Positions 7,180-56,000 of a stretch of 64,000 nucleotides of DNA are shown here, piece by piece (within the stretch, counting starts at the first letter, position 1; each line of letters starts with the position of its first letter). The notes beneath the pieces were generated by a model. The model ran no database searches. It was not told the DNA's origin and worked only from the letters and a program-made list of their open reading frames with translations. The position numbers and the translations under genes are program-made. Source of the stretch: Candidatus Omnitrophota bacterium (GTDB lineage Bacteria > Omnitrophota > Gorgyraeia > Gygaellales > Profunditerraquicolaceae); the NCBI GenBank assembly GCA_029571225.1, contig JAKPTF010000035.1, forward strand, positions 12,575 to 76,574, read 5' to 3'.

Positions 7180-7217
7180 TGTACTCCTCCCATGTTAGGA
7201 CGATTTTAAAATATCGG

Positions 7218-15313: not shown

Positions 15314-15329
15314 CGTTTCTTCTCCTTTT

Positions 15330-16859: not shown

Positions 16860-16863
16860 GGGC

Positions 16864-16924
16864 AAATAAAAAAGCCACGACTCACTGAATCCTCTTTTCC
16901 GGAGGCATTCAGTCATCCGTGGCC
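16864..16924 (-). terminator. Imperfect long hairpin followed by TTTTTTATTT (candidate intrinsic terminator of the giant gene, or a leader attenuator)
   Basis: Minus strand: GGCCACGGATGACTGAATGCCTCC-ggaaaa-GAGGATTCAGTGAGTCGTGGC-TTTTTTATTT. The stem has about 17 pairs with a few mismatches and one bulge. It ends 4 nt before the ATG at 16859. Confidence 0.45.
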
Positions 16925-16945
16925 ATTCCATACTGTATGTGCTTC

Positions 16946-16965
16946 TTTTGAAAGCGCTTTCAAAA
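16946..16965. promoter_or_regulatory. Perfect 20-nt palindrome TTTTGAAAGCGCTTTCAAAA
   Basis: Read directly from the sequence. It lies between the promoter-like element and the hairpin. It could be an operator or a small stem-loop. Confidence 0.35.
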
Positions 16966-16981
16966 CGCCTTACTATTAAAA

Positions 16982-17010
16982 AAGATACCATAGAACACCA
17001 TTTCTGTCAA
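16982..17010 (-). promoter_or_regulatory. Sigma70-like promoter candidate (TTGACA - 17 nt - TATCTT)
   Basis: The minus strand has TTGACA at 17005-17010, a 17-nt spacer and TATCTT at 16982-16987. It sits in the AT-rich 217-nt gap after the giant gene. Confidence 0.3.
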
Positions 17011-32000: not shown

Positions 32001-35000
32001 CATCATCCTTGCCGGTAAGCACTGCAGCACAAGGGTCCACGGTATAAGACCTGAAGAAACCGATCGCGATCTTCTTCACATCCTTCCTGTCCATCCCCTC
32101 ATCGATCTCTTGCTTATAGATACGGTACAGGCCGCGCACCTCAGCCGCGCAGGCGCGCTCCGCAGGTGCGCCGAGACCGCCGTCTTTGGCAGCCGGGGAT
32201 CGCAATAATTGCCGGACGCGTTCGTGCAGCGCTTCTATGGAGCCGTTGTTGTCGATGATACGTGTCCTCGGATCACCACGGAGAGCGTCAAGCGCCGGTT
32301 TCTGACGCGCTTCGATATCGCCTATCTGCTCCCTGCTCAAACCGCGCGCAGCGAGACGGCTGTGCCTCACAGATTGGTCGGCGTCAATAAGCCAGATCTC
32401 ATCGCACAGGTCATCCAGCTCCTTCATCTCATTGAGCACTGCGGCTTCGATGACAATCATGGCCTTTCCCGACCGTTTTGCTTGAGCTATCCCGGCAAGC
32501 GCCCGCTCTTTCATGGGCTCGAACATGATCGCGTTCAGGGCGCGGCGCTGCGATTCATCGCCGAATACGATCGCGCCGAGTTTCTTCCGGTCAACCGCTC
32601 CGTCAGGCGCCAGGACGCCTGCGCCGAATCTTTGTACGATCTTTTGAATCATACCCGGATCAGCCCTGACTTCATGGCCTATGGCGTCCATGTGAATGAT
32701 CCTGACGCTCTCCATGACCTCTCTCTCGATCAGTGTGCATACCGTTGTCTTGGCGCTTCCGATATACCCGGCTACGCCGATTATTCTGGGCGTGCGGAAT
32801 GCCCTGTCTGCGGCACCCGGAAGCAGCGATTTGGCCATGACAACAGTTCCGTCATATTCAAGCGGCCCGCGGAATCCGAGAGACCTCAGGAAGCCGACAA
32901 CGTCCCTGCACGGTTTCCCGGTCTTCTTATTGGGCCTGACATGCACGATCAATTCCGTTATGGCCGGATCCCTGCTGAACTCGTTTTCAAGCAATGCGCA
33001 GAATATGCGTCCGCGCCTCAGTTTAAGGTCCTGCGGATACGTGCGCCAGAAGCTGACCACTGCCGCGTTCCCCCGCGTCCGGACCCTGGCAAGCCCGACC
33101 CAAGAAGACCGCTCACCGCCTGTTGCCAGATAGACAGTGTCCGGTTTCCGCTCGCTGAACTCAAGCCGATATTCCGGAATTCCTGTCTTGCCGCCGTCCT
33201 GCTGCGCAGCCGCCTGCAGTGGCGGCACCGGCGCATTGAGATCAACGGCATGATTGAGAATATGCCATTGGCTGTCATTGACGTTATGCGCCCTGGCATA
33301 CTCCTGTAATGCATCTGCCCGCTCGGCAACGGCATATTCTTTCCACTGCTGCGTCCCCTGCATCACGTAGAGATCAGCGACAAGGCCCGAAAGCCGGTCA
33401 TGCACCGGTTTGTGGGTCAGGTCAGGCCGCAGGACCGTGCGCAGGTATGCATGGGTCCAGATGCCTGCAGGGCCTTTGTTTATAAGATCGGCTTCGGCGC
33501 ACAATTCAGCGAGCTTCTGCTCTTTCTCATCAATACTGCCGGCCTTTTTTTCGCTCAACCATTTCCAGTACCTGCTTTCCACAGCTCCAAGCAAGTACAA
33601 CCAATCAACTGCCTGCAGGTTGCATTTGAACTCTTCGAAGCTACGGACATTGCGCGCAGCTTCAGGAACCCCGTCCCTGAAAGCATCACCGGCGTATATA
33701 CCGAGGCTGGCCAGGCGCAGGTTCATCTCTGCCATAAGCCCCAGCGCCTTGCGCAGATCTTCGAGCGAAAGATTGCCCACCATGCCTATGAACTCGTCTC
33801 TGACGATGGTTTCGAAGAACGGCCGCAGCCGTATGAATGAGTGGACTATCGGGCCTGCAAGAAAGCCTGCATTGGGAGCGCGTTTCTCCCTTCTTTCAAC
33901 CAGATAATCCTGCGGGAAAGCCGTGCGCATATCATAAAGCAACGCTATTTTCTCCCTGGCATCCGTATCCGAAACTCCTGCAGAGCGCATTTTCTCGCGC
34001 AGAAACGCATCGGAACGGAGATCTAACCGGAATTCCGCCCTGTGATATTTATTCCACACCGGCACGTCAAGAAGCTTTGCCGCAAGTTCTGCCCTATCGT
34101 CGCGCAGCAGACGGGTAAATGCATATACACGGTGCTTCTTCGCAAGGCGCGATACTGCGCGCGCTGCGCGCTTCAGGTAAAAATCAGGCATTTCTTTGCG
34201 TTCCGGATCCATAAGCATCTTGACGGCGTGGTAATCAAACGGGAACATAACCGCATTGCGGAGAAAGGGCGCCAGCAGGCCTGCAGATCCGAACAACGAG
34301 ACGAGTGCCACGAATAAAGCGTACGGTAATCCGGCAATTGAGGCTCCGGCAAAAGCATATAGGCCTGTAACGACTGTGAACAATGCGCAGGCGCCACAAT
34401 AAAACGAAGAGAACCATTCAGACGATCTTTCTTTTTTATTCAAATAGACAATACGGCGAAACAATGGCGCTGGTGAAAAATCGAACGGTTCCATGGGTTG
34501 ATTCTCGTATTGCGGCACATGGTGCGGCCAGGTGGCAAACGTGGCATGCATCTTGTCAGGGAAATCCTTATACTCTTTGCCGCCTGTATATGTCAGCCAG
34601 GGAATCAATATAACAAAGATGAACACGCCTGCCGCAAACGCAAGGACCGGGATAAGCAGCCCGCCGTCCCTGACCTGCTGGCCGCCTGCTGTCTCCGGAT
34701 CGACTGCATGGTTGAGCAGGATCCAATCATTCTCGGTCAGCTCGTTCTCACGTGCCAGATCCCTGAGATACTGTGTTCGCTCATCTGCAGAGCGGTTCTG
34801 CCAATCGGACGTTGTTTCCTCTATATAAAGCTTGGATACGGCTTTTTTGATGTTCTCTGGCGCAGGGGCAAGCACAGTCCGGAAATAGACGAATGTCCAG
34901 CATCCGGCAGGCGCATCTTTATGCAAACCATGTTTATCGAACATCCGGAGCAAAAGCTCATCCTGTTCGATAATGCTGTAAAGAGCGAGCTCCCATTTGA

Positions 35001-38000
35001 TATGCTGGAAATCCTCGATGATATGGTTCTGGATGATCGAAACTGCAAGAGCATCAAGATACTGTTGGAACGCAGGCAGGCTGGTAACGCTTCGGCATGC
35101 TGCCGGGATCCATGTGGACACGGTCTTATCATCGACCATGTTCATCGAGGTCAGACGGGCCTGGAATTCCTGGGCATACTGCAGCGCCTGACGGAAGTCG
35201 TCGAGGGTGAGATTTCTCGCAAGATCGTACAGGGAAGCGGACCTGCCGTCCTGGAACCAGATCTTCTGGAGGTCAGGCAGGCCTTTCCAGTATATCGTTT
35301 CCTGGAATGCCTGCGCGTAGGCGCGGCCATGGGCCCTTTCGCGGGCGTTTTCCAGGATGCCTTGCTGGACCTCAAGCCGCAATGCAACGCGCCTGGAGGC
35401 ATATTCCCTGAGATCATCCGGTATTGCCGGATGGGCCAGTATTTGCCTCGCCTTATCAGCTTCGAACCGTTCGATCCAGTTATTAAGTATCGACACGAGC
35501 GATCCCCGCTCGATTCGTGCGAAAATCGGCGCTGCATTATCAACATCTCTATCGGTCAGATAATCTACGGAAACACGATCGAAGCGCCGGACAATCGCCT
35601 GATCATTGGCAAGGCGAAGGATATGCAAACAACATGTGCCTGCACGGCGGCCGAATACATCCAGCATCATCAAACACCATACTGCCAAAGCCTTTGAACG
35701 GGGTAATTTACTGATCAAATAGACGGCAAATGAATACCCGACGCATCCCAGAACAATCGACATATATATATTTCGCGTATTCCACCATACGAACATGGGA
35801 TATATGGCCGGAATGACCCATGCGATAATAAATGTAAGGATGATCGGCACGGCATTGCTCTGCATCCTCGGATTCGCTGCTGCGGGATACGCCGGCTGAT
35901 CCGGCCACAGGCGCAGGTTCTTGATGAAACCGAACGGCCGGAGCAGGGACTGTCCGCCAATACCTCCATCGAAATTCTCGAGAATATATCCGTGCTTTTC
36001 CATATGATCCGTGCTGACAAACGCGAACGTCGGGCTAACGCCGGCCTCGCGGTTGGGTACTTTTATTATGCGGTAAAGGCCTAAGAGCCAAATGGAGTGC
36101 ATACCGAGGTACAGAGTCTCATCAGTTGCATTAAAAAAGACATGTTGTATCAGGCGGGAATGAAATATATCGGATTCACCACAGGCATAGTCCCGCAAGC
36201 CGAACTGGAGGCCTAAACGGGATGACGTGCTGATGCGCGTCGTATTTGAACGGCCGTCTTCGATGATCAGCGTATCCCACGTTTCGTGAAAATCGCCGGT
36301 GCGATCGCCATGGCACAAAAGCGATGACAGGTATATGGAAAAAGACAATTCTTTCCGGTCATATACCAGTGTAAACCGCCTGTTATCCGGCTGCCATATG
36401 ACGGTATCCCGTGTTTTTTCCCTTCGCAGGGCGTCTACTTTATCCAGATGTTTCGCAAGAAGATCAAACCTGGCCTGCGCCAGGCGCATGTGATGATACC
36501 GTTCATCATCGATCTCATCGAGCTTATCGAACGGGATGAAGCTGCTTCCGATCGGCAGGCTTGCGAGCAATTCCTGTTCATTCCTGAATGACTCGATTTT
36601 TTTACCGGCTATCGCGGAGACCGCCAAAGAACTGGTTTGTGCGCGCACAACTATCAACGCTTCAGACGGTTTCCCGAAGGCTGAATTTGAAAGTTTGCGG
36701 AATATGATATCACCGGCTTGTATCTTTTCCAATCCGGATATTTGGGGGGCAAAAGACTGTAACTCTGACATGTGGTTGGAAAGCTTGTGTTCTTCAGACA
36801 AAGTGTCCTTGTTAAATTCGCTCAGATACAGACGCATCCAGTCGCGGAGGCTGCGGCAAGGACTTGTCTTTTCCTGGCGCAGAAGATCAAACGCCGGCGG
36901 ACCGCGTAAGTCTTCGACAACATTGCGGTCAAACCACGATAAATCAACCGATGCCGCCTGGCTGATCGACTGCGCAACACCATGAAGGTCATCGTCGCTA
37001 ACGGATCTCATGGATCCGAAGCGGATCGTATTGTTTATCTCCGGGCAAATCCCTGGTACGCGGCTTGCCAGGGCATGCGCGGAGGACTGAAAAAGCAGCG
37101 CTTCATCCCTGGTAAGACTTCGGTACGCTTCAACCCGTGCAAGGAACGCGGATACTTCGGCATTGATACCGGGCTGTTCGCCTTTGCTGCGAATATAGAG
37201 CAAGTGCGCAGGCCTCATAAGCGCCATGAACATGAATATTTTCCTCTGCGGGATAGTCAATTCTTCCATGGCCTGCTTCAGCGCATTATTCATAACCAGA
37301 CAATACGTTGTACTGCCCTGTGCCTCATCCATGATGTTCACATCCCAGGGGCTCTCAGTGCGATCCGCCCAGAAAAACCCCGTTGAGCCTTTTGTAAGAG
37401 CGCAATAATAACACGGGTATACGATCTTCATCATGGCCAGGCCATGCTCATAAACCCTGGTATCCATGGGAAGCGCGACAAAATCCGCAGAGTGCTTTTC
37501 GATGAACGAAGACTCAAGCGCAAGCTCCCCGGCAATAAAACTGATGTTTCCTTTCCTGTCCGCGCCTCCGTCTTTGGGCTTCTGCGCATAAAGATTGACC
37601 TCATACAATTCAGACCGTTCCCAGTACGGGAACGCTGCTTTGGCAAGCAGCGCCCGTTCGTATTCGTTCAATTTCATATCAGAAGCAATCCCGTCAATTA
37701 TTGCCTGTTTATCCTTGGCCGGCAGCGCGTTCCAGTCATGCCTGCCCTGCTCCACAAAAAGCCTGCTGGCTGCGGCAGACGCCTGATTTTTGATTAATCG
37801 AATTTTACCGCCGTGGGGAAGGGTTTCAGAAACAAAAGATTCATCTTCCAGTACCGTGTTTATATATAGTCTCGTCCAGCCGCCCGAAGCCACCTGCTCC
37901 TGAAACGCCAGCTCCCTGCAGATATCGATCAGCTTTTGGTCTCTGCTGAACCACCGATTGTACCTGGTATAAGCTCTGTAACGGGATGTGATCTCAGTAA

Positions 38001-41000
38001 TGATCGCCATGGCCTTGATAGCATCCAGATTTCGCTTGAATTCGGCAAGGTCAACTGCCAGACAGGCGGCGGGGATACCGTCATTAAATAATGGTTTGAT
38101 ATCGACTTTACCGTTCAGATACACATAAAACCCCTTGATATGTTTCAGTGCCTGTTCGAAATCCCGTGCAGGAATAGTTTTCAACAGGCGCAGGAAGTCC
38201 GTGTTTGAGAACAAATCCCTGAAGAGCCGGTCAGCATCTGCGTTTCTTTCATTCTCCAGCAATCTGAAAACGGAACGCTGATCTAACGGATACGCCTTGA
38301 TCTGGTTCAGCATATCGTAAATCAACTTCGCCTTTTCCCTGCCGTCCGGCTCCGATGCCGCAGCCGTGACGATCTTATAGTAAAATTCGGTTTCTTTCTT
38401 TGCCCGCGGCAATAATATCCAATCGCGCCTTTCTTTCAATTCACGCGTCATTTTCCACCACGGATGGTCGACGATTTTGATTGTTTTCATTTCCTGGCCA
38501 TTGATAAGCCACTGGGTCAATACGCGCATCAATACATCATTATCCAGCCGCCCGTACAACGCTACTGCCCGGGCATACTCCTTATCTGCAATAGACGCGG
38601 GATCCTGTTCATCGAAATCCCTCATTTCCTTCAGGTCATTCCCGAATGAGCTCACTCTCTGTATAAACAATTGGACCCGCTGCGCCCGTGCAATAAGCAG
38701 GCACAATCCGGTGGTGAGACCCAGAACGATTAATAGTGCCGTTTGATTATCTACTAAAATAAAACAGGCAACGATGGTGACAACCAGGAAAACGCCGAAA
38801 GCGAGTATATTAAAGAATTCCTCTTTCATGAGAGAAAGATCGCCTTCTTTTACCTGTGCCATCTGCAGGCGGATACCCGGCTCTAACAGAATCTCGCTGA
38901 TTCCGGTGCCGGATCCCTGCTGCCTGCCGCCGTCTTTTAAAGGCGGGAGCGCATCTTCGGAAATGCCAGGATCCAGGGATTTATTCAGATGGTACCATTC
39001 CTTAAGAGAAGATAACTGATTGTCCTGAAACAGGGTTCTCATGAATCCGGCTTTCTGCTCGGGCGTATACGCCTTCCACTCAGGTTTTGATTGCTCGTTG
39101 AAGATCCTGAATACTGCTCTTTTGAGATTATCCGGGCCATGTGCCAGGATAGTTTTCAGGTATACGTGCGTCCAGGAACCAGTCTGGCATCTCGTCCAGA
39201 GTTCCAGATCATCGGCGAGTTCCTTCAAATACGCGACCTGCGCGAGCGTATCATTGGCGCGGTATTGTGCCTGCTGCCATTTGATAAACCTGGCAACGAT
39301 GCCTTCGATGATCACCATGCTCTCGACGCCCTTAAGGTTCTCCCTGAAAGACTCGATGCTTGCCACACCACGGCATGCGGCCAGCAACCCTTCATTGACC
39401 AGCTCACCTGTGCCGAGGCCTGAACGCGCCAGGAATGCATACAGGCCGCTAATCAGTTTCAGGCATTCCCGGAAATCCTCGACAGACAGGTTACGCACCA
39501 GATCCTTGAATTCCTCGCGCGTGCGCATTTCGACAAAATCCTTTTCGATTTGCTGCGCGCGAACATCCCCCAGGGATGCGCTGTTCATATCCCTCAGCAT
39601 ACTGCATAATGACTTAACTTTTGCCTTGGCGTCACCGAAAGACGGCACCGCATCCTGCATTGCGTCAAGGAGAAGTGCCTCATTCTGTATCAGAGATTCA
39701 TATACCTTGCGTCCTCTGCTCATCGGCCGATGCGCCATAATAAGCGCTATCTTGTCGGACTCTCCCCTGAACAGCAGGTCCTTTAAAAGCAGAACGGTCA
39801 TGTAATGCGTGGTCCAATAGATGGCCCTGCTGGCGTTTTTGATCTGCCGTTCTGAAAGGGCCTTTGTTTGAACTGCATAAAATGTATTCAGGGCTTCAAA
39901 TGTCCAGGAAATACGCCACATTTTCCCGAAAAGACCGTACATATAACGGGTAAATTTAAATATACAGGCAAAGAACATCCAGATAAACGGCCAGATTGCT
40001 GCTAAAACTACCGCCGCAAAAATGCCCGTGTTCTGCGATATGATTACGCCGCCTACGAGATGCGGGCCGAAGATACCAAAGGCCACAAGCCCAGAAATCA
40101 AAAGAATACCACTGATAGAGTGCCATGGCAAGAAGCCTTTCGTAATGATCTCAAGAGCACGTTTAGCCTCCTGCCAGAAAATGTTGGTCAAGTACTCTAT
40201 CAGCCGCTGCCTGGCAAGTTCCAACGACAGCCTTCGATATTCCTCGTACGTATAGGGGAATCCTTCTGCCTTATGCCGCGTGCTTCTGCCGCCGTCCTTC
40301 TGGCCATTGCCGTTGACGTCACGGCGGCCTGCGGCGTAGAACCCGCGCTCCTGCAGGATCTCGTCGCGGATGATCGAAGCAATGGCAAGCGGCACGTTCT
40401 CGATGTCGCCCTCAACAACCCAGTGCGAATACACCTGCTGGACATAGGTAATACCTTCACCGATGCCTAAACCGATGACCTTGATGCCTTCAGCTTCGGC
40501 TTTCTCAATTTCCTCCTGCATGACCGCGGTATTATTGAAGTGGCCGTTGCCCTCTCCGTCTGTGATGATGATAATAACACGGCTATCTACTGTTTCTTCG
40601 CGCATCTTTTCTACTGCCAGCCGCAGCGCATCGACGTCGCATGTAGCGCCGCCACCCATGAAGTTTATGATCTCGCTGATCAGCTCTTCTTTTTTGGCCA
40701 GGTCAAGCTTCTCGTCAAATTCTTTGTGCACCCATGCCCCTGAATGAAACCCGATGACGTTGAATTCAATGTTCAGGTACTGGAGCGTCTCCATGAGCAG
40801 GACCAAACCATGGATCTCGTCTTCCACGCGGCCCATCGCGGGAATACTGCCGCTTTCGTCCAGCAGCAGCGAGAACCTGTGGCTGCGCGATTCCGGCCGC
40901 GTCTTGCGCAGCCAAACCTTATCGTCGCTAATGCCCTTGACCTCATATGCGATATCCGCCTGCATTAGCCTGCGAAGGTCTATCTTCTTGCCGGTGCGGT

Positions 41001-44000
41001 AGAAACCCTTGAAGCGCGGCTTTGTATCCTTGTGCAGGATGTTGTCGAGATAACCGATGAGCGTATTGATGATGACGCTGACCGGGGCGTAGTATTTGTC
41101 ATAATCAGTAGAGTGCTTTTTGCGCTGGATCTCGAATTTACGCTTGAGGTCGATCAGATCGCCCAACGACCTGCCTTTGAACTGCGCATCGCGGGCCGCT
41201 TTCTTCTGGTCAAGCCGCTTGTCGCTATCCTTATTGCTTTTCCTGTCCGTTTCGTCTTTCTTTGGTTTTTCGCCGGCTTCCTGCGCTGCCTTTGCTTCTT
41301 CTTTTTCGCGCTCTTCCTGCTCCTGGCGCAGGCTTTCCTCCGCCGCTTCGATCTCATTCTCCTTCTGGGCTTTCTCTTCCGCGTTCTTTTCTGCGTGCGT
41401 ATATACCTTTGCGCCGAATTTATCAGCCATTTCCTTCGATTTCTCATCGACGATCTGGCGCGCACGTTGCACGATCTCTTCTTCGCTTAATTCATGGTCC
41501 CAGTCCTCTTCGTCGTTCTGGTCGCTGCTTCCACCTTTCTGATCCTTATTTTGAGGTTCCTGGCCGCCCCCGCCGCCACCCTGCTGGTCTTTTTGATCCT
41601 TATTGTCCTGCTGGCCTTGCTGCCCCTGCTGGTCGCCCGACCCGCTACCGCTCCGGTTGCATTGCTTGCAGCCTTGTTGATTCCGTTTCCTGACCTGGTC
41701 CTTCACGAGATTTTCCGATTCCTGCACTAACGGCTCGTACACAGGCATGATCTTGTCGCGCAAGACACGCATCACGTTCTTGGACGCCTTGAGCTTCTCG
41801 GTCGCGGTCGGGTTGAGGTCCATAAGGACTTTTGTCTTCTCGTTGATATCCGGGGCTGATATCTTGCGTTCATGTCTGCGGTTATCTTTGATAACAAGAT
41901 CTTTTTCCCCGTCCCTGCGCACGGATAATCCCAGGTCTGGAGCATCGACTGCCTCATCGCCTTCAGGATACATGACTGTCTGGCGCCTGCCGTCCGCCGT
42001 TGTAATAGTCAACTTATCTTTGTCCGTGCGTTCAACGTCTATCGTGCCGGCAAGGGTGTTGAAGATGCCGGTATAATCCTTTCTGGTTTTCTCCAGAGCT
42101 TCCAGGACATTCTTGTTTTTGATGCGCGGATGCGGTTTGCCGTACGCCCAATCGTGTATGGCGCCAAAACCGTACTGCAGATGCGGCAGGACCTGCTGGT
42201 CATTGAATGGCTCGTTCGAGTCAGCGCCGAGCAGCTTGGGATCCTCATAAAGCGCGTCAATATACTTATCAGCTCCTTCGAATTTCTTTTTTGTCCAGTT
42301 ATTGACGCGCGGGTCTTCGAGGGCGTTCCAGACGAATTGCCTCGTCGGTTTCTGCTTGACGTACGGATCAGGGAAGGTGATGTCGCGATGGGCGCCTTCA
42401 TGAAGGCACGCGCCAAGCACGAATTCTTCCTTCTTATCAAGCAGGTCCGATTCCGGGCAGTGCATCACCGGCGGCTTGGCTTCAAGGTCAACGCCCCACA
42501 TGGGGCCCGGGCCGGGCTGGATCTTCATGTCATGGCCGAACGACCGGGCCATGGATTCGACGCGGCGCACCTTATCCTGAATCTTGCGTTCCTTTAATTT
42601 CCGGGCGAGCCAGTTCTCCTGGTCCTGCCTGGCATCGTCCGCAGCCGGCTGCTGCTCATTCTCATCCCCCCCGTCTTTCCTGCGCAAGACCGCGTCAGGA
42701 TGAACAAGCTTTGATGCAGCAATCTTCTCGGCAATGGCTTCTTTTGTTACGATGAGGGGTTTTACGACTGCGGGGCCCATTGCAAGCAGTTCTTCCCGGG
42801 TGATTTCGCGTGTCAGATTATCCAGGCTATCGAAACGTTCGATGATCGTCTTAAGCTGCGCATCGCTGATGGCGGCGACTTCTGATGCGCTTGCGATCGC
42901 GACCGGGCTGAATTCTTTCATGACACAAACCGTTTTATCCAGCGCTTTGTCAATCAGAGGCAATAACGCGCAGCACACGACCCGGTGCGCCAGCGGCAGA
43001 GGCGGGCCCGTGGTCAAGACAGGCGATGCCTTTCTCTGCGCGCGAATGATATCTTTTTCATTCGGGTTTATTCCGCTTAATGCCTCGGCAATGCAGCAGC
43101 GCGGCCACTGCGCATACAGAATATCTTCCAGCTCATCACTGAGTCTTTCCATTGCATCCAGGACAGCATCAGTACGCAGAGCCCGAGGTTCCATTGCTGC
43201 AAATTCCGCATAGTGCTGCTGCACATATGCCTCATCCAGGCTTAAGGCTTCAGCGATAAACCGTATATTCGCATCCTCTTTTTCTCCACCGTCCGCTTCC
43301 TGCTCTTTGGAGTACGCCGGGATATCTTTATTCGGGTCAAGCGCTTTGTTCAGCTTATACCATGCATGGCCGTTAAGCCGAAAATCCCTGGCCAATGCCC
43401 GCAGGAATGCATCTTGTGCGGATGGAGAACGGCCTTTCCAATCAGGCATTGCCTGTTCTGCGAACAATTTTTTTACCGCTTCTTTCAACGGTCCCTCATC
43501 TTTCTCAAGGATCGCAGCATAATAGACCTGTGTCCAGGCGCCAGCTGGGCCTCTTGATTCCAGTTCCATCTCCTTGCTCAATCGGAGAAGCTCTTGTTCC
43601 TGCAGGAAAATGTTCTCCTGGCGGTATTGCTTGGTTTTCCACTCGTTGAATTTAACGATAATACCTTTAACTATCTGCTGGCCCTCAATACCTTGTATGC
43701 TGGACCTGAATTCCTCAAGGTTTGAAACTGCGCGCGCCGCAGCGGGAACTCCCTCGGAAAGCGCCTCATTGGGATCAATATCCTTGCTGCTTAGAAACAT
43801 ATACATATCTTTGATGAAATCGAGGCTTTTACGGAAATCATGTGTCGGCAGGCGGCGGATCAGATCAAGGAAATCAGGATTCCTGCGCATTGTCCCGAAT
43901 GCCGCTTCAAAATCGACCGCCTTGCCCCAGACGTTTTCGAGCATTGCGTCTTTAAGGGCGACCAGTGCATTGACATTATCGCGCGCTTCTTCCGGCGACC

Positions 44001-47000
44001 AGGACATGATCCATACCTGGTCAAAGAAAGAAGCTTCCTCGCGGATATCCTCTTCAATCGATTTCTTCTCTTCGTCGGTCCATACGGACTCAAGCTCAAG
44101 GATCCTCTGTATCCTGTCCTCTTTTCCGTTGAGCAGCATCCGGCGGAGCACCATGGCGCGGTATTTTGCAGACATCTGTTTCAGGAATTTTCCCGCGAGT
44201 GCAATATCTTCCTGTGATATGTCTTTCACAGGCCTATCATAAACCTTTGAAAATCCGCGGAACCTCTTGTCAAAACGGACCGACCGCACGGCGAACCGCA
44301 ACGCATTAACCCCTGTGTAGAGCGCCAGCGTAAAAGCAAAAAAGATAAACAACGGCACGAAACATACGGGCTGCAGTAACAGTCCGTACCAGATCCAGTC
44401 AATGATAGTGTAAAGATATAAGTGAACACCCAGGAACACATCAAGCAGATATGCCGCGATGGCCGGCATCCACACAAAACCAGCCATCAAATAAACAAAA
44501 AGATACTTGCAAAATATGTCCTCCAGGACTGCATTCAGTTTCGCGCGCGTACCTAACCGCTCCGATTCTTTGCCCCTGATAAATTCGTGTTTCATATCAT
44601 CAACAGGGAACACAGGCGCATCGCTGCCGCCATCTTTAACCGGATTGGCGCATTCAGGCGCGCTGATACCTTTGGTCAAACAGGAATTAACGATCTGTTC
44701 CATTTCCTCCGGCCTGAACTCGCCGTCGATCCAGAATTCCTGGAACTTATTCCTCATGGCCAGCGAAAGCCGGTTGCGGCCTGCATACCTGCTCGGGTTC
44801 ATGGCGGCGAAGAGGCGGAAATCAGGATGCGGCCGCACCATTTCGCCCTCATGTTCGGTGATGACCAGGTATCCGTCGTCGTCAAGCAGGGAATTGATGC
44901 GCTCGAGTATCTGCGGTTCTGCGAGATTGATCTCATCGAGCAATATCCAGTATCCCTTTTTCATCGCCTCAACAAGCACGCCGTCGCGCCAGCCATATCT
45001 GCGCTTACCCTCTCCTTCCAGAGGCAGATATTCGCCGATAAGTTCCGACGTATCGGTCTGGCCGTCAAGCGACACGCGCACGAAATTGGCATTGGCCAGG
45101 CGCGCCATATAACGGATAAGCGACGTCTTGCTGGATGCGGTCGGCCCGACAAGAAGGACATACTCGCCCATTTTTATGGACGGCGCGATCCTCACCAGGT
45201 ACGACAGCGTTGTCTGGATGTGAACAAGCGCCGCATCAGGTCCTGGTATGTACGGCCCGCCATGCCGGAGCTTTTCAACCCTGACACCGCTGAAATCGAC
45301 CCCGTCAGGATCATCGGTAATGCCGTACGTGCGTGACGCCTGCGCGGGAACATGGCAATGCTTTGCAACAATCCGGTCGAACACCGCCTTGTCCTTTGCG
45401 GTGCGCAAACAGCTGCCGTACACCTCTTTCATCTGGCAGCACAAAAGGTCATGCAAGTCACCCTGGCCGTTGTTGAGCAGGTTTATCCTGTTCGACACGC
45501 GCAGGAGGTTGCGGAGGGTAAAATAATAGAACTCCCCCTCCTCTGAACCGAACAGTCCTTCGACGCCAGCGGTGCGGATTTCGTAGTGAAGGTCGCGGAT
45601 GATCCGGAGGCTGTTGCCGTCCACCTGCGTGAACTTGCGCTCGAGAAGGTCAAGGAGCTCCGATTCCGGCATCTCGTCGATCCATTTGACCCTGAACCGG
45701 TTCATGAAGGCAGGCGATAGCGCCTTGCGGCCCGCATATTCCACCGGGTTCATGGTCGCAAAAAGCCTGAAGTCCGGGTGGGGCACGATCTTTTCGCCTT
45801 CGTGTTCGCGCAGGATTATGTTGCGGTCGTCATCGAGCAGCGAGTTAATGCGCTCGATGATCTGCGGCTCAGCAAGGTTGATCTCATCCAGGAGCAGCCA
45901 TTGGCCTTTTTTCATCGCGTCGATAAGGATGCCGTCGACCCAGGCGAATGAACCGTTGATCTGCGGCCGCGATCCGCCGATGAACTCCAGCTTGTCGGTC
46001 TGGCCGTTCAAGTTGAACCTGCGGAAATCGTTATTTGTCATGGCAGCCAGGTAGCGGATGAGGGATGTCTTTCCGACGCCGGTCTCGCCGACGAGAAGCA
46101 CCTGCTCGTTCATGGCCACCGCATACGCAAGTGACTGGAGGTTATGCACGGTGCTGGGCGTATGGATCAGCTGCGCCGTTGCCTTATTGGGCACGTATGC
46201 CCCGGCTTTTTGGTTGACCGGAAGGACGGTCAGGCCCACGGTCACCTCGTCATCCGTAACCTTTATGGCATCCTGCGGCGTTGGAACAAATACCGCAGTA
46301 TCGGCGCCGCTCGCCGCTGCTCCGAGGTCCTGCAGAAGAACCGCAAACTGCCGCATGTCTTTCTGTGTTTCCATGCGGTCCTGATATACGTACATGGCGC
46401 CTTCCAATACCGCTTTCTCGGTCCCGATGGACTGATACATGTTCACGAAACGAGCCCACGATTTCAAGTCCCTGATGCTGAACACATACCCCTGCAGGCC
46501 GCTGCCGGAGAGCGCGCCGGTATTGACGAGCGAAAGCAGCCTCATATGCAGCCTGACCATTGCCCCGGCAATCGCGTCCTTATCCGGTACCTGCAAATAC
46601 CTGCCCACGATCGTGATCAGCTCATCCTTTTGGAAATTGCCGTCAATCCAGATCTCATGGAACTTGTTGCGCATTGCTGGCGAAAGCTTGTTCCTGCCGG
46701 AGTACCTGCTCGGGTTCATGGCGGCGAACAGCCTGAAGTTCGCATGCGGCCTGACCTGCTCCGCCTCATGCTCGGTAACGATGATTGAGCCATCGTCGTC
46801 AAGGAGCGGATTGATGCGCTCGAGGATCTGCGGCTCGGCGAGATTCACCTCGTCCAACAGCACCCAGTATCCCTTTTTCATCGCATCAATAAGGACACCG
46901 TCGCGCCATACATATTTCCTGCCAAAACCGTTGCCTTCAGGCGCGTATTCGCCGATGATCTCTGCGGTATCGGTCTGGCCGTCAAGGGACACACGGACAA

Positions 47001-50000
47001 AATTATTTCTGGTCAGATATGCCAAATACCGCACGAGGGACGTCTTGCTTGCTGCGGTCGGGCCGACAAGAAGTACGCGCTCGTTCAGCCGGATCGCCGG
47101 AATTATATGGCGAAGGTAGCGCATGGTTGTCGGGATATGCACAAGGCTTGATTCCTTTCCCGGGACATACGGGCCGTCCACGTTGTTTATCTCCGACGTA
47201 TCCAGCGCCATATTGTTCGGATCATGCGCTCCGTTGGGGCTCAGACCGCTGAACGTCGTATCAAGCAGGTCTGCGAATATCTGCTGGTCCGTCTCGGAAC
47301 GGAGTGCGCTCGCATAGACCTCCTTGGCCTCTTCGTTGAACAGCCGCTTCAGCGCGAATTCATTAACCTGTTCGCCGTCCTCCCTCATCCGCTTTTCGCG
47401 CAGTTTAACGCGCTCGCACAGGCGGATCAGGTGCCTGAGGGTAAAACAAAACGGCTCTCTTTCGTCCCTTCCGAGGATCCTTTCCTTACTGTCGCGCACG
47501 AGCGATTGATGCAACTGGTCAATGCGGCCGAGAAGCAGGGTATCGAACCCGAATTTCTCATTCAGCAGGCTGATCCGTTCGCTCGGCAGCATCTCATCGA
47601 TCCATTTGACCCTGAAGCGGTTCATAAGCGCGGGCGAAAGGACGTTCCTTCCTATATAATCGGTCGGGTTCATGGTGGCGAACAGGCGAAAATCCGGATG
47701 CGGCACGATCTTTTCGCCGTCGTGCTCCCGCAGGACGATGTTATGGTCGTCGTCCAAAAGCGAATTGATGCGCTCGATAATCTGCGGTTCTGCAAGGTTG
47801 ATCTCATCCAGAAGGAGCCACTGGCCCTTTTTCATCGCCTCGATAAGGATGCCGTCAACCCAGGCGAATTTCCCGTTTGCCTGGGGCCTGCGGCCTCCGA
47901 TGAATTCCAGCTTATCGGTCTGGCCGTTCAGATTGAACCTGCGGAAATCATTGTTGGTCATGTATGCGAGATAGCGCACGAGCGACGTCTTGCCCACGCC
48001 GGTTTCACCGACCAGAAGCACCGGATCGTTCAATGTCACTGCCTGCGCGACCGCTTCAAGGTTAGAGACCGTGCTTTGCGTATGGACGAGCTGCGAGGAC
48101 TCTTTCTTCGGAACGAATGCGCCTGCCTGTTTCTTCACGGGAAGGATAACCGAATCAACCCGCACCGTATTGTCTTTTATTTCGATAGTGCCTTCCTTAT
48201 ACGGCAATACGACAGGCCCCTCTTCCTCTTTCTTTTGCTGCTGGTCCGCTGCCGGTTTTTCTTTCGGGCCTTCGACGGCCTTGCGGAACCTGATGAATTT
48301 CTCCGCAACGTCTGCGGACAACGGGCCGACCGCGATATGCGCTGCGTCAACGCTGTCGGATTCGTTCTCCAGCTTCTGCAGGGCAACGGTAACAGCCGCG
48401 CTCAATGCAGGGTTCAACCCCATGAGAAGCTCATTGCGCAGCTTTTCCGAAAATGCGCGCAGGCGCAAGTCGCCGATAACCTCGATGGCCGCCTTTTTGA
48501 TCTGGGTGACCTTGCTGGCAAGCGGAACATCGAGCAGCACCGTCGCAATCTCGCGCGGAAGCAGGACGAATATCCGTATGCCTTCCGCGATCTTCGCGTC
48601 CTCGCGGCTTGCAAGCATCTGGGCGATCTGTTTGAGGTACGGCTGCAGGTCCTGCGGAAAGTTCTCCGTTGCCCTGCGGAACTGGTCCGCGAGGCTAAGC
48701 GACGTAAAATCCTCCTCCTGGACGAAGTCAGCCATGGACATGATGTCGTATGTCTCATAGGTCTGCTCTTCCCACACTACGTCGATGTCGAAATCCCTCG
48801 ACTTGCTGCCCGTTGACGCGAATTTAGATTCCTTGACGATCTCCTTGAGCTGCTCCTTATCCTGCGGGGATTCCAGGCGGTCCTTGAACACGTACATGGC
48901 GCCCTTGAGGAACGTAGTGCGCATGTCGGCGTTGAAATTCTCGTTGAACGTCTTGATGAAATACGCCCATTGTTTCACGTCGCGCAGGGAGAAACTGTAT
49001 CCGTCATTGCCCATCTTGCGCCTGCCGATCTGCCCTTCCTGGATGCGCTTCTGGACATGCTTGTAGATCTTGATCATTTCCGCAATGACGTCGTCTGCGG
49101 CAAAACTGCCGAGGTAATGACGGATGATCGAGGTCAGCTCCTCATCGGTAAACTCACCGTCCATCCATATCTCGTGAAACTTGTTGCGCAAAGCCGGGGA
49201 GATCTTGTTGCGGCCCGAATACCGGGTCGGGTTCATGGCGGCGAAGAGCCTGAAGTTCGCATGCGGCCTGACCATCTCGCCTTCATGCTCGGTGACGACG
49301 ATAAAGCCATCGTCGTCTATGAGCGAGTTGATGCGTTCGAGGATCTGCGGTTCGGCAAGGTTCATTTCGTCAAGGAGGATCCAGTAGCCTTTTTTCATCG
49401 CCTCAATAAGGACGCCGTCGCGCCACAGATAGGAACGCTCCGCCGCATTCTCACCCGGGATATATTCCCCGATCAGCTCGCAGGTATCGGTCTGGCCGTC
49501 GAGGGAGACGCGCACGAAATTGTTCCCGGTCAGATGCGCAAGGTAACGGATGACCGATGTCTTGCTCGAGGCAGTCGGCCCGACGAGCAGGATGCGCTCA
49601 TTCTGGCGGACAGCCTTGATGATCTTGCGGGCATAGCACAAGGTGGACTTGACGTGCACGAGCTTTGCTTCTTCCCCGGGCACATACGGCCCCTGCACGT
49701 GTTCGATGCCGGACGTATCCAGCTCCTCGTCGGATACCGGGCAGGAATAGCAGTCGACGCCCGGAAAGACCTGCTGCATCTGTTCTTTGAAGACCTGCTG
49801 GTCTTCTTTTGACCGCAGCATGCTGCCGTAAATATCGCATGCCTCCTGCGCGAACAGCTTCATCACCAGCGGCCCGAACTCGAAATTATTGTTCGTGCGT
49901 GCTTTGACGCGCTTGGCAATGCGCAGAAGATGCCTGACGGTGAAATAATACGGTTCCGGCTCGTTCTTGCCCAGGGTCGGAGCAATGCTGCGCAGGTTCT

Positions 50001-53000
50001 GGTGAAGCATGATAACGCGGGCGATCACGTCCTCATCGAAGCCGAATTTGCGGCGCACAAGATTCAACAACTCGCGCTCGCTCAGTTCCTCGATCCATTT
50101 CACGCGGAAACGGTTCATCAAAGCGGGAGACAAGGCCTGGCGGCCGGCATACTCAACCGGGTTCATGGTAGCGAACAGGCGGAAGTTGGGATGCGGAACG
50201 ATCTTCTCACCGTCATGCTCGCGCAGGATGATATTGCGGTCGTCGTCGAGCAGCGAGTTGATGCGCTCGATGATCTGCGGTTCTGCCAGGTTGATCTCAT
50301 CCAGGAGCAGCCAGTATCCGTTCTTCATGGATTCTATCAGTATGCCGTCAACCCATTTCAACGTGCCGTCGGCCTGCGGCCTGCGGCCGCCGATGAACTC
50401 CAGCTTATCGGTCTGGCCGTTCAAGTTGAACCTGCGGAAGTTATTATTGCTCAAATAGGCCAGATAGCGCACAAGCGACGTCTTGCCAACGCCCGTTTCG
50501 CCGATGAGCAGGATAGGATCGTTAAGCGTCACTGCCTGGCCGATCGCCTCGAGATTGCTCACGGTCGAGGCTGTATGCACGAGATGAGCGACGTCTGCGG
50601 AAGGGACATACGGCCCGCCCTGTTCATTGATCATTACCTTCGCGCAGCCGACCTGCACATAACCTTCCTTGGGCGGCAGGATGCGATTGTTCGCGTCGCG
50701 TTCGTTGAAGTGCTTGCGCGACCGCACGGACTCAAAACATTGCTTCATTTGCGGATGATATTTGGCAAAAACAGCTGCCACTTCATCTGATTTCTTCTGC
50801 AGGTCTTCCGGCAGGACCGGCGCATTGAGATCGACTTCTGCAGCCACATCTTTTAATAATCTGCCGTCCACTTTCTTATAGCCGAGCGTAATGAGCGCCC
50901 GCGCTGCCGATGCTGCCACAAACCTGTCTTTGCGGTCCAGGAGCGTCATCAAGTATGTTGCGTATTTCTTGAACCGGAATTGATTGACCAGGTCGATGAT
51001 CGCCCGTTTGATCGGCCCATCCTCATAGGTAATGGTATGGTCGATCAGCTGTTGCGCTATTTCAGGCGGCAGGCCTTTCCAGGCATAAATTGCGGCAACG
51101 GTCGTCATATCGACTTTATCGCTGAGCATTCCGGAACTTTCCCTGATCGCTCCGGCCAGATCTTCAGTTTGGCCGCGGACAAAATACCTGAACAGGACAT
51201 CCAGGTTGTTTGAGAACAAAATGTCCCGCTCGTCAAATCCTTTGAATTCCACGATCTGGTCAAACTCATCGCTTGCCGCGACATCGATAAAGCTGCCCAG
51301 ATTCAGCTCCGACATAGTTTTCATGAATTCTTTGCGGTCCTCGGGCTTTTCCATGCGGTCGCGGTATACGTACATCGCGCCCTTGACGAATGACCGGGCA
51401 AGGCCCAGTCGAGGGCTGAACTCGCGCACGTAATTCGACCACGCGCGCAGGTCTCTCAGGCTGAACTCATACGGCTCTTTGCGGCCGGCGCCGATCATGT
51501 TCTTTTTAACCTTTTCCCTCAGCTTGGAATGCAGACAGACCATCTCCTTAACCACCTCATCCTTCTGCGTGAGGTTCTCAAGGGGTTTTATCGCGTCTGC
51601 GACCAGGTCTTGTTTACCGCCGTCCTTCATCGGCGCAAGTGTCGCCTCGGTCACCGCAGGATCGAGCGCCTTGTTGAGCTGATACCATTCTTTCTGGTTT
51701 AACCCGTAGTTCGCAGCCAGGGAATGCAGGAAATCCACCTTTTGCTGCTGCGAATACGCTTGCCATTCGGGCTGGGCCTGCTTGTCATAGAGTTTAAGTG
51801 CGGCGTCATGGAAATCCGGCCGGATATCCTTGAGGATAGTCTTGAGGTAAACATGCGTCCATCCGCCCGGAGGACCGCGCGCAGCAAGCTCCATGTGCTC
51901 ATAGAGCCTGATCAACTGTTGTTCCTGTCCGATAACGTCCTTACGCCTGAATTGCCGTCCAAGCCACGATTCGTATTTGGCGACCACGCCCTGGACCAGC
52001 TGGTAACTTTCGATGCCTTTGAGATTGCTGATAAAGTCGTCTGCGCTCCTCGCTCCCCTCGCTGCTGCAGGCACGCCTTCGGAGATAGCCTCATCAGCCG
52101 CGATCTCCTTGGAACGGAGGAACTCGGCCAGCGCCTCGATACTGCGACAGCACTGCCTGAGCTGTTCCGGAGCCAGGCTAAAGACGAGTTTTTTGAAATC
52201 TTCGTGCCTGCTCATGGTCTTGAACGTTTCAAGGCTGACACCGGCCTTTTTGTCAAGCCGCACCTGTGCCGCACTAAGCACCAGTATTTTTAACCTGGCT
52301 TCTTCAAAAGACTGTGAGTGATCCGCAATCTCATCCTGAAATGCACCTTCTTCCTGCAATTCACGGAGCAAAATTTCCGTGTTGCGCTTGTCAGAGAGTG
52401 TATTAATGATCCTGCGGGCAACATCCGAGCGGGAATTAAGCAGGAATAATTTAAGCAGCCCTGCTATGTCCTTATTCGACCACTGGCCGATGATGCTGTT
52501 CATCTTTAAGATCAGCTCATCAGGGCACGGATCACAATCAGGGATCAGCATTTTTTCGATCACCGCTCTCTCTTTGTTACTTATGGAACAAGATACCCGC
52601 AACTGCCTGAATGCGAACACGGCATATATGCCAAGATGAATAAGCGACGCTACCAGCATCACAGGCACGAAAAGGCAGCAAACGCTTCCGAAGAGCCAAT
52701 AATACCAGGGGATTACAAAAGTTATGCCATAAAACCATTCTATTCCGACTAAGGCTATGGCGAATATTATTCCACCGAGGATTTCGCCGACGGGTACTAT
52801 ATGAAGCGCTATAAAGGCCCCGAGAAACTTCGAGTCCCATAAACCTTGGATCCTCTGATCACATTTGGCCGAGAGCTGTTCCAATGCAGCGTCTTTATTC
52901 GCCAGGGGCAGCGCCGCATACTCGGCAAACAGTTCCTCCTCGTCCGGATTGCCGCCGTCCATCAGCGGCGCCAGGGTCGCCTCGGTCACCGCAGGATCGA

Positions 53001-56000
53001 GCGCATAGACAAATTTCTGCTGTAGTGATAACGTCTCCCAATCAGGCCGCAAGCGCCGGTGATACAGCTGGGTAATAGCCTCTTTCAACCGGCCGGGACC
53101 GCATGCTTCCCTGGCGATAACAAGAAATTCCAGATTCTCCTGGCGGCCGCCGTCGAATGCCCCGGACATGCGATAGTGCTGATCTATTGCGGCATACTCT
53201 TCTTTTACCCTGGCCATCCATTGATCATGAGCTTCCCTGCCGTTTTGCCCGGAGAATTCCGGTATTGTTTTCTGCGCTGTCGTTGATATCAGGTCAAACA
53301 GTTCCGTGTCGGATCCGGTCCCGGTGCCGAATGTATGCTGCAGGTCGCGTATAAGACATATCCCCATGCCGATGCGCTCGAGAACCGTCTGATCGTACAG
53401 ATTCTGATATGACAGAGAAGAAATATTCCTGGCCAGATGAGCCGGCGACAGGAAAAGCCATTCTAACATAAGCGATTTGATAATGGTCGCCGGAACGGAT
53501 AATGAGATCCCACCCAGCACCAGAGACACGGCAACGGCGGAGAGCCAGGTAATAGGCGAGACGATCACCACCCATATCAGGATGTAGCCGATGTTAAGGG
53601 ATGCCTTTGCGCACCATGAAAGCACGGTATCAATGGTGTTTATCGTCTTGCGGTGCCTGCCAAGGGCGAGCGGCCATCCTGCCGCATCTTTACTGCGTGT
53701 TTTCCATCCGATCAGATGAGCTGTCATACGGCAGGAATCAGTTTCCAGGGACGGATATAAACCGTTGAACACCGCCGCTGCCAGATTGACATGCGTGAAT
53801 ATTATCAGCGCAAGCCAGGGAGACGCGATGTTCGGGATCAATACCGAAAAGGGCGCGATCCCCAGGGAATACAGGACGATAAGGCCGATCACTGCCAGGA
53901 TGAGGTTGGATAAAGGCCCTGCCGCTGCTACGTAGAAGCCGGACCGGCTGGAGCTAGTGATCGCCGTTGCGGGATCCTCCTCGACATATGATGAGACAGC
54001 GGACAGCCTGATGCGTCTTATGGGCCTCTTGAATCGGATCATGACGAGCGCATGCGCGGCCTCATGGATGGCTGATATGGAATATACTCCGAGAGTCAAG
54101 GCGCCCAGCACCGGGTTCAAGACCCACAGGACGATTATTGCAGGAACAAGAAGAACCAGATTAAAGTGCAGTTCGATCGGGATCGATGTGGGCAGGTGAT
54201 AGACGCTTGAGAACCCTCTTCCGGTCCAGCCGGATTTTCGCCGCTCCGTTTCAGATTCTCCGCCGTCGCGCAGGATGACGTGCGGCAGGGTCTGATAATC
54301 GGGCACGACGGTGCGGATGTTCACCGCGCGCTTGAGCTTCTCCCAATCGACCTTATTGAGCTGATGCTCTGCGGCGATATTCTTCAACCAACCCAGCTTC
54401 TCCTCCAAGGATAAGCCGTTCCATTCAGGCCCGCTTGTCTTCTCAAACACCTTGACCGCCGCTCTGCGCAAAGGCGCATGGGGTCCGTAGTTTTCCTGTA
54501 TCTGTGTCCTGAAATACAAATAGGTCCAATCTGCGGAATCACGAGGTATCGTCAGCCCGATTTCTGATATAAGATCCTTCAGTTTAGTCTCCTGAACGTC
54601 AAGTTCATAATTATGCCCGAGCGGACCGTTAATAAAATAACCCAATTCCCACTGTTTATATGCCCGCACCACAGCTTCTTTCAGGGCCCAGAACTTAATG
54701 GCATGCAGATTCCGAGCAATCTCCTCTTTGGTGGCGGCGCGGGTCGCCGCGGGCACAGAATCGCATAATATCCCGTCGACTGCGATCCCCCGGCTGCGAA
54801 GGCCGCTGCACATCGAGACGATCATATCAAGGCTTTGCTGAAAATCATCCTGCGCGAGATTGCGGATCATTTCCAGAAATTCAGTCTGCGTGGTAAGATG
54901 AAGAAACACCTCGTGGGCATGCCGCATACCTTCCGACCCCTCTCCCAGGTACGGCACAAGCTGACGCTCAAATCCATACAGGGCGCGCAACCTATCCCTG
55001 GCGGTTTCGGCACTATCTGCCAGGCGGAATACTTCGCTCTGGAACTTTAACTCTGCCTGTAGCGATTCCGTAAGCCTTGCTCTTCTTCTATCGTTCCAGA
55101 CAGACAACGCGCAAAACCGCACGGCCTTGTCGCCCTGCAGCCGGGAGAGCCAATCCTGGATCAGAAACGTCAAATACCTGTCCGGAAGCTGGCTGAAGGC
55201 TTTTGCCGATCTCTCCAGACTATTATCAGATACATCGGAGCTGTCAGATACTATGATCTTCTTCATCCGGGGATGATCAACGCAATGGTGCACGGCCAAC
55301 GCAATATCATACACATGACCCGTGAGGAATAAAGCGCCCATAACAGGCATGATATAAAGAATATTCAGGGAAAGCGTGAAACCCACGCCAGCAGCTATAA
55401 AGTTTAAAATTACAGTCATGAAGAAAACTATCCATCCAAGATCAGCTTCTGGTGACGTATGATATGTCCGCGCCTCCAGTGTTTTCCAGAAAGGGACCTG
55501 CGGCAGAGCCTTGCATAAGCGATTAGAGATTTCTTCATCTGCCACAAGCAGCATATTGACTACGAAGTTTAAAATAGATATCATGAATATTGTCGCGCAC
55601 AAAATGAGGCCCAGAGCGGACAACATAAAAATTCCATCGATAGTCACGGCCTGCGTATAGAACTGCCATGCCAGACCTGTATCGCCTCCTGACAACGCAG
55701 CCCAGGCCTGCGCAAAATATGAAAGAGATATCTGATCCTGGGGGGTTAAGAAACCGGCGGCGAAAACGCTGCATGCAGTCCACAGCGACCCGCCATCCGA
55801 ACGCAGGCTCGCCAGTCCGTCCTGGTCTGTTAATTTCTCCCGAATAAGACCGTTGTTGAACTGCGGGTTGACCCAGACGATCCTTCCATCAGGCGTAATG
55901 TCGCAGAGCGCGGGGCACACAATATCGATGCCGAAGGTCCTGTGCCACTCATCCTGTATATCGCGCGGCAATATCAAACGGTATATGTCGGCCACCGCAC

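Follow-up and report, generated by a model that had tools for sequence, protein, structure and literature searches.

Seven paralogous helical modules and a recurrent Asp-Gly-Gly delimiter in a giant open reading frame of an Omnitrophota bacterium

The 64,000-nucleotide stretch of contig JAKPTF010000035.1 from a Candidatus Omnitrophota bacterium analyzed here (the window in the following) is nearly all coded on one strand, the minus strand, and is dominated by a giant open reading frame (ORF) at 17077..64000 which, according to the ORF list and its translation, spans at least 15,640 amino acids (aa). The frame is still open at base 64000, its N-terminus lies beyond the window edge, and the residue numbers and counts given below cover the visible part only. 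For giant genes of Omnitrophota, cleavage of the product has been suspected and the question of one chain versus cut products has been asked explicitly, with the cleavage points being unknown (West-Roberts et al., 2023, 10.1101/2023.11.21.568195). This locus raises the same question, together with that of the role of seven paralogous modules present in the ORF. Here, the DGG endings of these modules were followed across the ORF, and in this way DGG was noticed as a delimiter of the gene as a whole: the ORF reads as a string of at least 38 units, each closing with an in-frame Asp-Gly-Gly. Our tentative answer is that the modules might be non-catalytic membrane docking subunits of a polyprotein-like gene with DGG as its processing site, a reading to which, taken as a whole, we give somewhat less than an even chance.

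An earlier note, made from the letters of this DNA alone, had placed seven paralogous modules in the window, and both their limits and their relationship hold. All copies lie in the one minus-strand ORF, as do or adjoin all further features located below on the same strand, and each interval is exactly one DGG-to-DGG segment: M1 (54259..55788; aa 2738-3247, 510 aa; DGG at 54259-54267), M2 (51616..52950; aa 3684-4128, 445 aa; DGG at 51616-51624), M3 (43285..44625; aa 6459-6905, 447 aa), M4 (38926..40287; aa 7905-8358, 454 aa; DGG at 38926-38934), which abuts the most divergent copy M5 (37564..38925; aa 8359-8812, 454 aa; DGG at 37564-37572), and M6 (34660..35961; aa 9347-9780, 434 aa; DGG at 34660-34668), which abuts M7 (33190..34659; aa 9781-10270, 490 aa; DGG at 33190-33198). 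The copies sum to 3,234 of 15,640 aa (20.7%), in agreement with the previous estimate of about a fifth of the ORF. In self-BLASTP against the ORF each copy found the other six with E-values of 1e-13 to 1e-55, and across all ORFs on the minus strand of the window, a hidden Markov model (HMM) built from the alignment of the seven detected exactly seven domains (459-589 bits), each beginning 0-47 residues after one DGG and closing at the next. Since the copies match each other by BLASTP and the HMM finds exactly seven domains, their similarity is not compositional only. The motifs listed in the earlier note are seen in order in the MAFFT alignment (DF..L, GVPAA(A/C)R, G.WT.VY, W...S....K and LN...W..LN.A.DP...DGG), and the columns invariant across the seven copies are L, A, L, W, T, Y, W, L, D, G, G. 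The only other match of the self-BLASTP was a DGG-bounded remnant of 65 aa (52951..53145; aa 3619-3683) that comprises the C-terminal tail of a module only (E = 6e-8 to M2 and 2e-5 to M4). Its last ~60 nucleotides are ~92% identical to the M2 tail in the nucleotide alignment while the rest has diverged, which suggests a recent gene conversion or partial duplication.

The DGG ending had been described as a property of the module family. This is true of all seven copies, but it is not family-specific: DGG closes 37 segments of the whole ORF. The tripeptide is found 37 times in the giant ORF, whereas 200 shuffles of its residues gave 4.2 on average and never more than 12. At the nucleotide level, the pattern GAYGGNGGN has 37 in-frame occurrences, the remaining two coding-strand frames hold one and the opposite strand holds three, and the codons for Gly (GGC, GGA, GGT, GGG) as well as for Asp vary at synonymous positions. 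Because third positions vary and the pattern is nearly absent out of frame, the signal lies at the level of the peptide and not of the DNA; a DNA-level motif or a Shine-Dalgarno-like GGAGG was excluded on the same grounds. The 37 sites divide the visible ORF into 38 pieces, the internal ones measuring between 65 and 2,330 aa; their median of 352 aa is the size of an ordinary bacterial protein. Moreover, the 11 stretches matched by Pfam (~3,250 aa) contain no DGG, whereas ~7.7 would be expected at random placement (P ~5e-4). The residue before the Asp (position -4) is K, R or Q in 24 of the 37 sites, and the 15 residues upstream of DGG are poor in hydrophobic residues (26% versus 37%). Recurrent motifs are also present in related Omnitrophota proteins: the compositionally very different fragment P0026 (MCG2708144.1, 6,788 aa) contains 19 DGG as compared to 1.8 expected, and the giant-gene fragment P0027 (MFA5350818.1), a protein from a metagenome-assembled genome (MAG), contains no DGG and has SSP[V/I] seven times as compared to 0.08 expected (aa 416, 629, 1012, 1448, 2141, 2146 and 2525), which may be a lineage-specific alternative delimiter. 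A further text search of the literature found no description of such delimiter sites.

With respect to the modules themselves, the N-terminal transmembrane helices proposed earlier are supported insofar as every copy has an uncharged, hydrophobic, transmembrane-like block of 40-75 residues near its N-terminus, on the basis of a Kyte-Doolittle scan rather than a trained topology predictor. In M2-M5 there is a single block with a short internal break and K/R clusters on both sides (M2, ~52609-52833; M3, ~44299-44517; M4, ~39952-40125; M5, ~38683-38823), a pattern that a hairpin with two cytoplasmic ends should show, and the loop within the block is short and uncharged. Judged by this pattern, the block is probably a transmembrane hairpin. 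M1 (~55291-55650), M6 (~35647-35865) and M7 (~34261-34659, the first block directly after the preceding DGG) show a second or third hydrophobic block. The hydrophobic region is the least conserved part of the module, with a pairwise identity of 17% as compared to ~30% in the C-terminal 200 aa. The conserved helical core noticed earlier was recovered as a compact all-alpha domain of ~320 aa with 16 helices in the AlphaFold models of M3 (43285-44250): whole M3, modelled from the seven-sequence alignment, reached a predicted local distance difference test score (pLDDT) of 77, with 80-94 in the core, and the core alone, modelled from eight sequences, reached a pLDDT of 88.3 and a predicted template modelling score of 0.80. 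The last 11 residues of the core model have a pLDDT <50, and the final 10-20 residues ahead of the module DGG are rich in Pro and Ala and disordered in the M3 model (tail and DGG, 43285-43317). The invariant residues of the core are L, A, W, T and Y only, with none of Cys, His, Ser, Asp and Glu among them; to judge from the alignment, it is a domain without conserved residues of catalytic type.

Two smaller elements can be recognized within the core. The first is one copy of a helical-hairpin unit of ~50 aa with the consensus 'FRAALDLAARLAEKGIDPAATLEYGLPAAAKALSTPEEFRANLEAL' ('GIDP...LxxGxPAAA...EF..NL'), located at 54700-54864 (M1), 52021-52179 (M2), 43693-43851 (M3), 39334-39495 (M4), 38020-38160 (M5), 35047-35220 (M6) and 33607-33771 (M7). 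The same repeat (~42-50 aa, 'GIDP...LEYGLPAAA...EF..NL') forms long tandem arrays of up to at least 11 units in unrelated bacterial proteins (P0008, P0009, P0011, P0019 from a Blastocatellia MAG, and P0024), whereas each module has exactly one such unit; five array proteins searched against Pfam (P0008, P0009, P0011, P0012 and P0014) did not match any repeat family. The second is a C-terminal subdomain formed by the last ~120 aa of the core (profile positions 313-425; ~43336-43674 in M3), which includes G.WT.VY and the conserved W and always stops 10-20 residues short of the delimiter. It is found twice in P0015, beside TPR and kinase-like regions, and once in P0027, after a P-loop kinase-like region and ~15 residues before SSPI; by sequence, it is thus joined to other kinds of unit in other Omnitrophota fragments.

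The family was not recognized in the earlier note, and the searches carried out here (four HMM libraries, PDB sequences and two fold searches) likewise gave no specific match. Scans of the seven copies with Pfam, NCBIfam, PHROGs and PADLOC yielded a best E-value of 0.026, for a single member only; no profile match to a PDB sequence was better than E = 0.099; and Foldseek, which had been suggested as a check, found no match to the core model in the PDB at E <=0.001. Because none of the library, PDB-sequence and Foldseek searches gave a specific match, we read the modelled fold as a generic helical-hairpin bundle without a specific solved relative. Among 1.84 billion representative proteins, the family profile matched only 28: seven fragments of the same giant ORF (six strong ones and P0025), four true homologues (P0007, P0010, P0013 and P0017), six longer fragments with the N-terminal half or the C-terminal subdomain only (the three of these that were checked are all labelled Omnitrophota), and a remainder covering the single repeat unit only. 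Every match wider than the repeat unit is a fragment of the giant ORF or a similar fragment, several of them labelled Omnitrophota. A word-indexed search of 5.8 billion proteins found only a fragment of the giant ORF or the query itself, and when GTDB species genomes and metagenome contigs from JGI were scanned by pattern, no relatives were confirmed. Stand-alone homologues, for which the earlier note had proposed a search, were not found among these data: the best non-self match, P0007, sits beside P0013 on a 20-kb JGI contig (L001, 3300045909 Ga0496406_003196) with a related multi-unit region. This contig, which belongs to another organism (53.7% GC), has its units arranged differently and contains TIM, HEAT and NHL, numerous DGG and three or more pieces of the module; it is ridden with frameshifts, with many short ORFs in all three frames, and these interruptions may stem either from indels in the assembly or from genuine decay. 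P0013, P0017 and P0026, homologues from other assemblies, each begin directly behind a DGG. Taken together, the module is an undescribed family: neither it nor the delimiter is described in the accessible literature, while the type of gene is known.

How these parts might work together can be proposed as follows. The hairpin would insert with both ends cytoplasmic and would hold the alpha domain against the membrane's inner face; the domain is placed in the cytoplasm because the enzyme-like and AAA+ units of the ORF must work there too. The alpha domain would serve as a non-enzymatic protein-binding platform, and the seven diverged copies would offer distinct docking sites for soluble units of the same ORF, candidate partners being the midasin-like six-AAA+ unit, the VWA unit, the two M50 units and kinases. 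DGG would be a double-glycine-type processing site, for which a C39-family peptidase would be the likely protease, and cutting would release each module as a membrane protein of ~50 kDa. An anchor rather than a channel is favored by the conservation of the soluble domain next to the low identity of the hydrophobic region, by the K/R-flanked blocks and by the short uncharged loop. A non-enzymatic platform is in line with the invariant residues (only L, A, L, W, T, Y, W, L and the DGG), the confident core model and the presence of one solenoid-forming repeat per module. The docking context is given by the neighbors, since modules flank the six-AAA_5 unit, the VWA unit and the two M50 units. M2 and M3 bracket a unit of 2,330 aa (44626-51615) that combines six AAA_5 domains with midasin-type lids, and a 793-aa unit with an acidic stretch and VWA (40288-42666) is, together with a 206-aa unit, bracketed by M3 and M4. 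By their domains, the two large units resemble a split midasin (MDN1/Rea1-like) protein, with M3 and the 206-aa unit inserted between the two halves.

Several points weigh against this proposal. Cleavage, membrane insertion and binding partners are all inferred, and the AlphaFold models were built on only seven to eight sequences. Pfam scans of the window returned no C39 or other Cys/Ser peptidase domain, only the two M50 units, with the N-terminus of the ORF lying off the window. Position P3 is always Asp and P4 mostly K/R/Q, unlike the classical double-glycine leader consensus. M1, M6 and M7 may have three spans, which would put their two ends on opposite sides of the membrane. Furthermore, in two cases one module directly follows another without an intervening client unit, and DGG is entirely missing from other Omnitrophota fragments that carry the N-terminal half of the module.

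The comparison with known systems gives likewise a divided picture. The Gly-Gly at positions P2-P1 of the putative cut, with D-G-G at 37 of 37 junctions, is shared with C39 double-glycine leader processing in bacteriocin and microcin export. Classical double-glycine leaders read LSxxELxxIxGG, with hydrophobic residues at -4, -7, -12 and -15. Contrarily, the motif described here is internal and present at least 37 times between protein-sized units and not once after a short leader, the upstream sequence is (K/R/Q)-D with Asp always at -3, no hydrophobic periodicity of the leader type was found, C39 is not among the Pfam matches of the window, and cleavage is a prediction from the sequence. C39 domains have been reported near the N-termini of Omnitrophota giant genes (West-Roberts et al., 2023, 10.1101/2023.11.21.568195). 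With viral polyproteins, which are cut at short motifs by papain-like or 3C-like proteases, the locus has in common that a single ORF encodes many units of protein size, that each junction carries a short conserved motif and that the sequence before this motif is exposed and disordered. That DGG marks junctions is supported by the 11 uninterrupted Pfam stretches, the median unit of 352 aa and a TIM-like unit (59704-61737; aa 755-1432) in which the residue that directly follows a DGG is where the Pfam match sets in, at profile position 54. This unit begins at beta3, and as the missing elements beta1 ('FNLKMF') and beta2 ('VVVCPTF') are found after its C-terminal end (~aa 975-1005), its sequence is that of a circularly permuted TIM with the delimiter as the new N-terminus; it reads 'YLPLWVKQ' at the position of the catalytic-Glu segment ('YEPVWAIG' in E. 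coli TpiA) and may be a pseudo-enzyme. Unlike viral polyproteins, the ORF is a cellular bacterial gene, its units include membrane proteins and metabolic-enzyme-like domains, and no in-cis processing protease was identified within the window: the two M50 units are intramembrane proteases, which would be an unlikely fit for a soluble DGG site. The modules also differ from HEAT/ARM alpha-solenoid scaffolds, as no Pfam HEAT, ARM or TPR model matches them, no high-Z fold match covers most of the domain, and the core is compact, globular and fused to the probable transmembrane hairpin.

Alternatively, the chain may stay intact, with the modules acting as periodic membrane staples and rigid spacers that hold the enzyme-like parts apart at the inner membrane. 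This is close to the reading of the earlier note and is the strongest of the alternatives, although we consider it rather unlikely. It would account for the hairpin-like hydrophobic blocks in all copies, for the absence of a fitting protease among the Pfam matches of the window and for the related modules without DGG in other Omnitrophota fragments; additionally, transmembrane helices or signal peptides are present in 94% of catalogued Omnitrophota long proteins. However, a spacer would not require a 320-aa domain that is both conserved and predicted with confidence to fold, and if nothing recognizes DGG, its strict, frame-bound presence at all unit boundaries is left without explanation; the disorder of the tail before DGG implies that the tail is exposed. 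The positions of the copies do not fit either. They had been thought to separate the enzyme-like modules, but they are clustered in aa 2738-10270 and not interleaved, M4 directly abuts M5 and M6 abuts M7, and no module stands next to most of the enzyme-like units (TIM, ROK, HAD, GNAT and others). Each copy, moreover, is bounded by the same DGG as every other unit. Of the roles suggested in the earlier note, structural or membrane-organizing remains the most plausible class of function; the modules are not linkers, as each has a globular domain of 320 aa predicted with confidence.

The constant distance between the C-terminal subdomain (profile positions 313-425) and the delimiter, always 10-20 residues, could be explained if subdomain and tail presented the delimiter or recruited a protease, or if the domain acted in cis and cut its own C-terminus. 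The occurrence of the same subdomain in P0027 after a kinase-like domain, ~15 residues before the recurring SSPI, and twice in P0015 with TPR and kinase-like units would fit such a processing aid. Nevertheless, we regard it as improbable: 30 of the 37 DGG sites have no such domain upstream, the fold searches found no similarity to any protease, and the domain has no invariant Cys, His, Ser, Asp or Glu. For lack of an invariant catalytic-type residue, modules as self-cleaving proteases were rejected.

Regulated intramembrane proteolysis was considered because of the neighborhood of M1, which lies between two paralogous Peptidase_M50 (site-2 protease) units (56152-57183, aa 2273-2616, and 53146-54258, aa 3248-3618; mutual BLASTP E-value of 1e-6). 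The modules, read as transmembrane-anchored cytoplasmic helical domains, might be substrates of these units, with a cut in the hairpin freeing the alpha domain as in the case of anti-sigma factors. This adjacency is its sole support; seven modules are set against two M50 units, five of the seven lie far away, and unlike anti-sigma factors the modules have no anti-sigma, sigma, effector or DNA-binding domain matches in Pfam and NCBIfam, which makes this explanation very unlikely. A channel, a transporter or a membrane-shaping element, in which hairpins would oligomerize into a pore or wedge the bilayer like reticulon-type hairpins, is scarcely credible: long uncharged blocks such as these (40-75 residues) recall wedge hairpins and the paralogues are several, but conservation sits in the soluble domain, polar residues are not conserved in the hydrophobic region, whose length and span number differ between copies, neither the fold searches nor the sequence searches matched a channel, and the blocks as a channel were rejected because they are the least conserved part of the module. 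Finally, an artefact, in which the similarity would be compositional or the ORF not a real gene, has virtually no probability, as it is refuted by BLASTP matches down to 1e-55, the ordered motifs and an open frame of 46.9 kb with Pfam domains along its length, is countered as well by identical or near-identical fragments in independent public assemblies (P0001-P0006 and P0025) and by homologues in other organisms (P0007, P0010, P0013 and P0017), and has nothing found in its favor.

The kind of gene to which the modules belong can be recognized from its sequence and surroundings. Giant genes of Omnitrophota, which reach 147,155 aa, have been described as 'Archaeovorins' (West-Roberts et al., 2023, bioRxiv 10.1101/2023.11.21.568195) and include a 'multi-enzyme metabolic cluster' class (Nielsen and Lui, 2026, bioRxiv 10.64898/2026.06.07.730766). 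We assign the locus to this published kind (Archaeovorin or multi-enzyme class) because of the Omnitrophota label on an identical public fragment, the matching domain content and the glycolytic-type and PPDK ORFs downstream. The 474-aa protein P0005, named 'MAG TPA: hypothetical protein, partial [Candidatus Omnitrophota bacterium]' at NCBI, is 100% identical to part of the giant ORF (part of M1 and the next unit), and the related fragments P0018, P0026 and P0027 are likewise Omnitrophota MAG proteins. With the published genes the ORF shares a length above 15,000 aa with many hydrophobic spans (the class being marked by more than 10,000 aa and numerous transmembrane regions), hydropathy peaks being present in 18 of the 38 units in a crude Kyte-Doolittle scan, and an odd mix of TIM, ROK, HAD_2, GNAT, HEAT, TPR and AAA_5; in full, Pfam matched DUF1152, TIM, TPR, two Peptidase_M50, six AAA_5 with midasin-type lids, VWA, CoaE, HEAT_2, ROK, Cation_efflux, HAD_2 and GNAT. 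The class is further marked by a SecA_DEAD domain and by a C39 or S8 peptidase domain near the N-terminus; none of these is among the Pfam matches of the visible part of the ORF, whose N-terminus is outside the window. Both the module family and any delimiter are absent from the two papers, in each of which 'DGG' occurs 0 times.

Downstream of the giant ORF four further ORFs follow on the minus strand, of which the PGI-, aldolase- and PPDK-like ones are a feature shared with the published giant genes. The first, of 553 aa (15330-16991), lies between the giant ORF and the aldolase/PFK/GAPDH ORF, has neither a Pfam match nor a DGG, and has no entry in the exact-match gene index. It is followed by an ORF of 1,726 aa with class-II aldolase (FBA-II), PFK and GAPDH domains (10163-15343), one of 951 aa with a weak PGI match (7218-10073), and one of at least 2,398 aa that encodes a pyruvate-phosphate-dikinase (PPDK) with large insertions and runs off the left end of the window (1-7194). 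The last three each have a DGG ~50-110 residues from their start, as if each opened with a short propeptide ending in DGG.

Giant Omnitrophota genes are a recognized puzzle, for which DGG provides concrete and testable candidate cleavage points. If the favored reading is correct, and we hold it as possible rather than probable, the giant ORF would be an operon translated as one chain, a cellular bacterial polyprotein cut at a lineage-specific delimiter (DGG in this lineage and in P0026, another motif such as SSP[V/I] in P0027) into ~40 proteins of ordinary size in fixed 1:1 stoichiometry, with the modules assembling on the inner membrane the soluble units thus released, which would include enzyme-like proteins and a split midasin-like AAA+/VWA machine. 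The question of cleavage can now be tested directly via peptide termini at DGG in existing metaproteomes, and the DGG sites are at the same time rational cut points for splitting giant proteins into units for structure prediction. The module, one fifth of the visible protein without a Pfam match, is a defined piece of the 'dark' fraction and a candidate organizer of the assembly; even if the reading of its function is wrong, it is a new domain family, found here only in giant-gene-like fragments.

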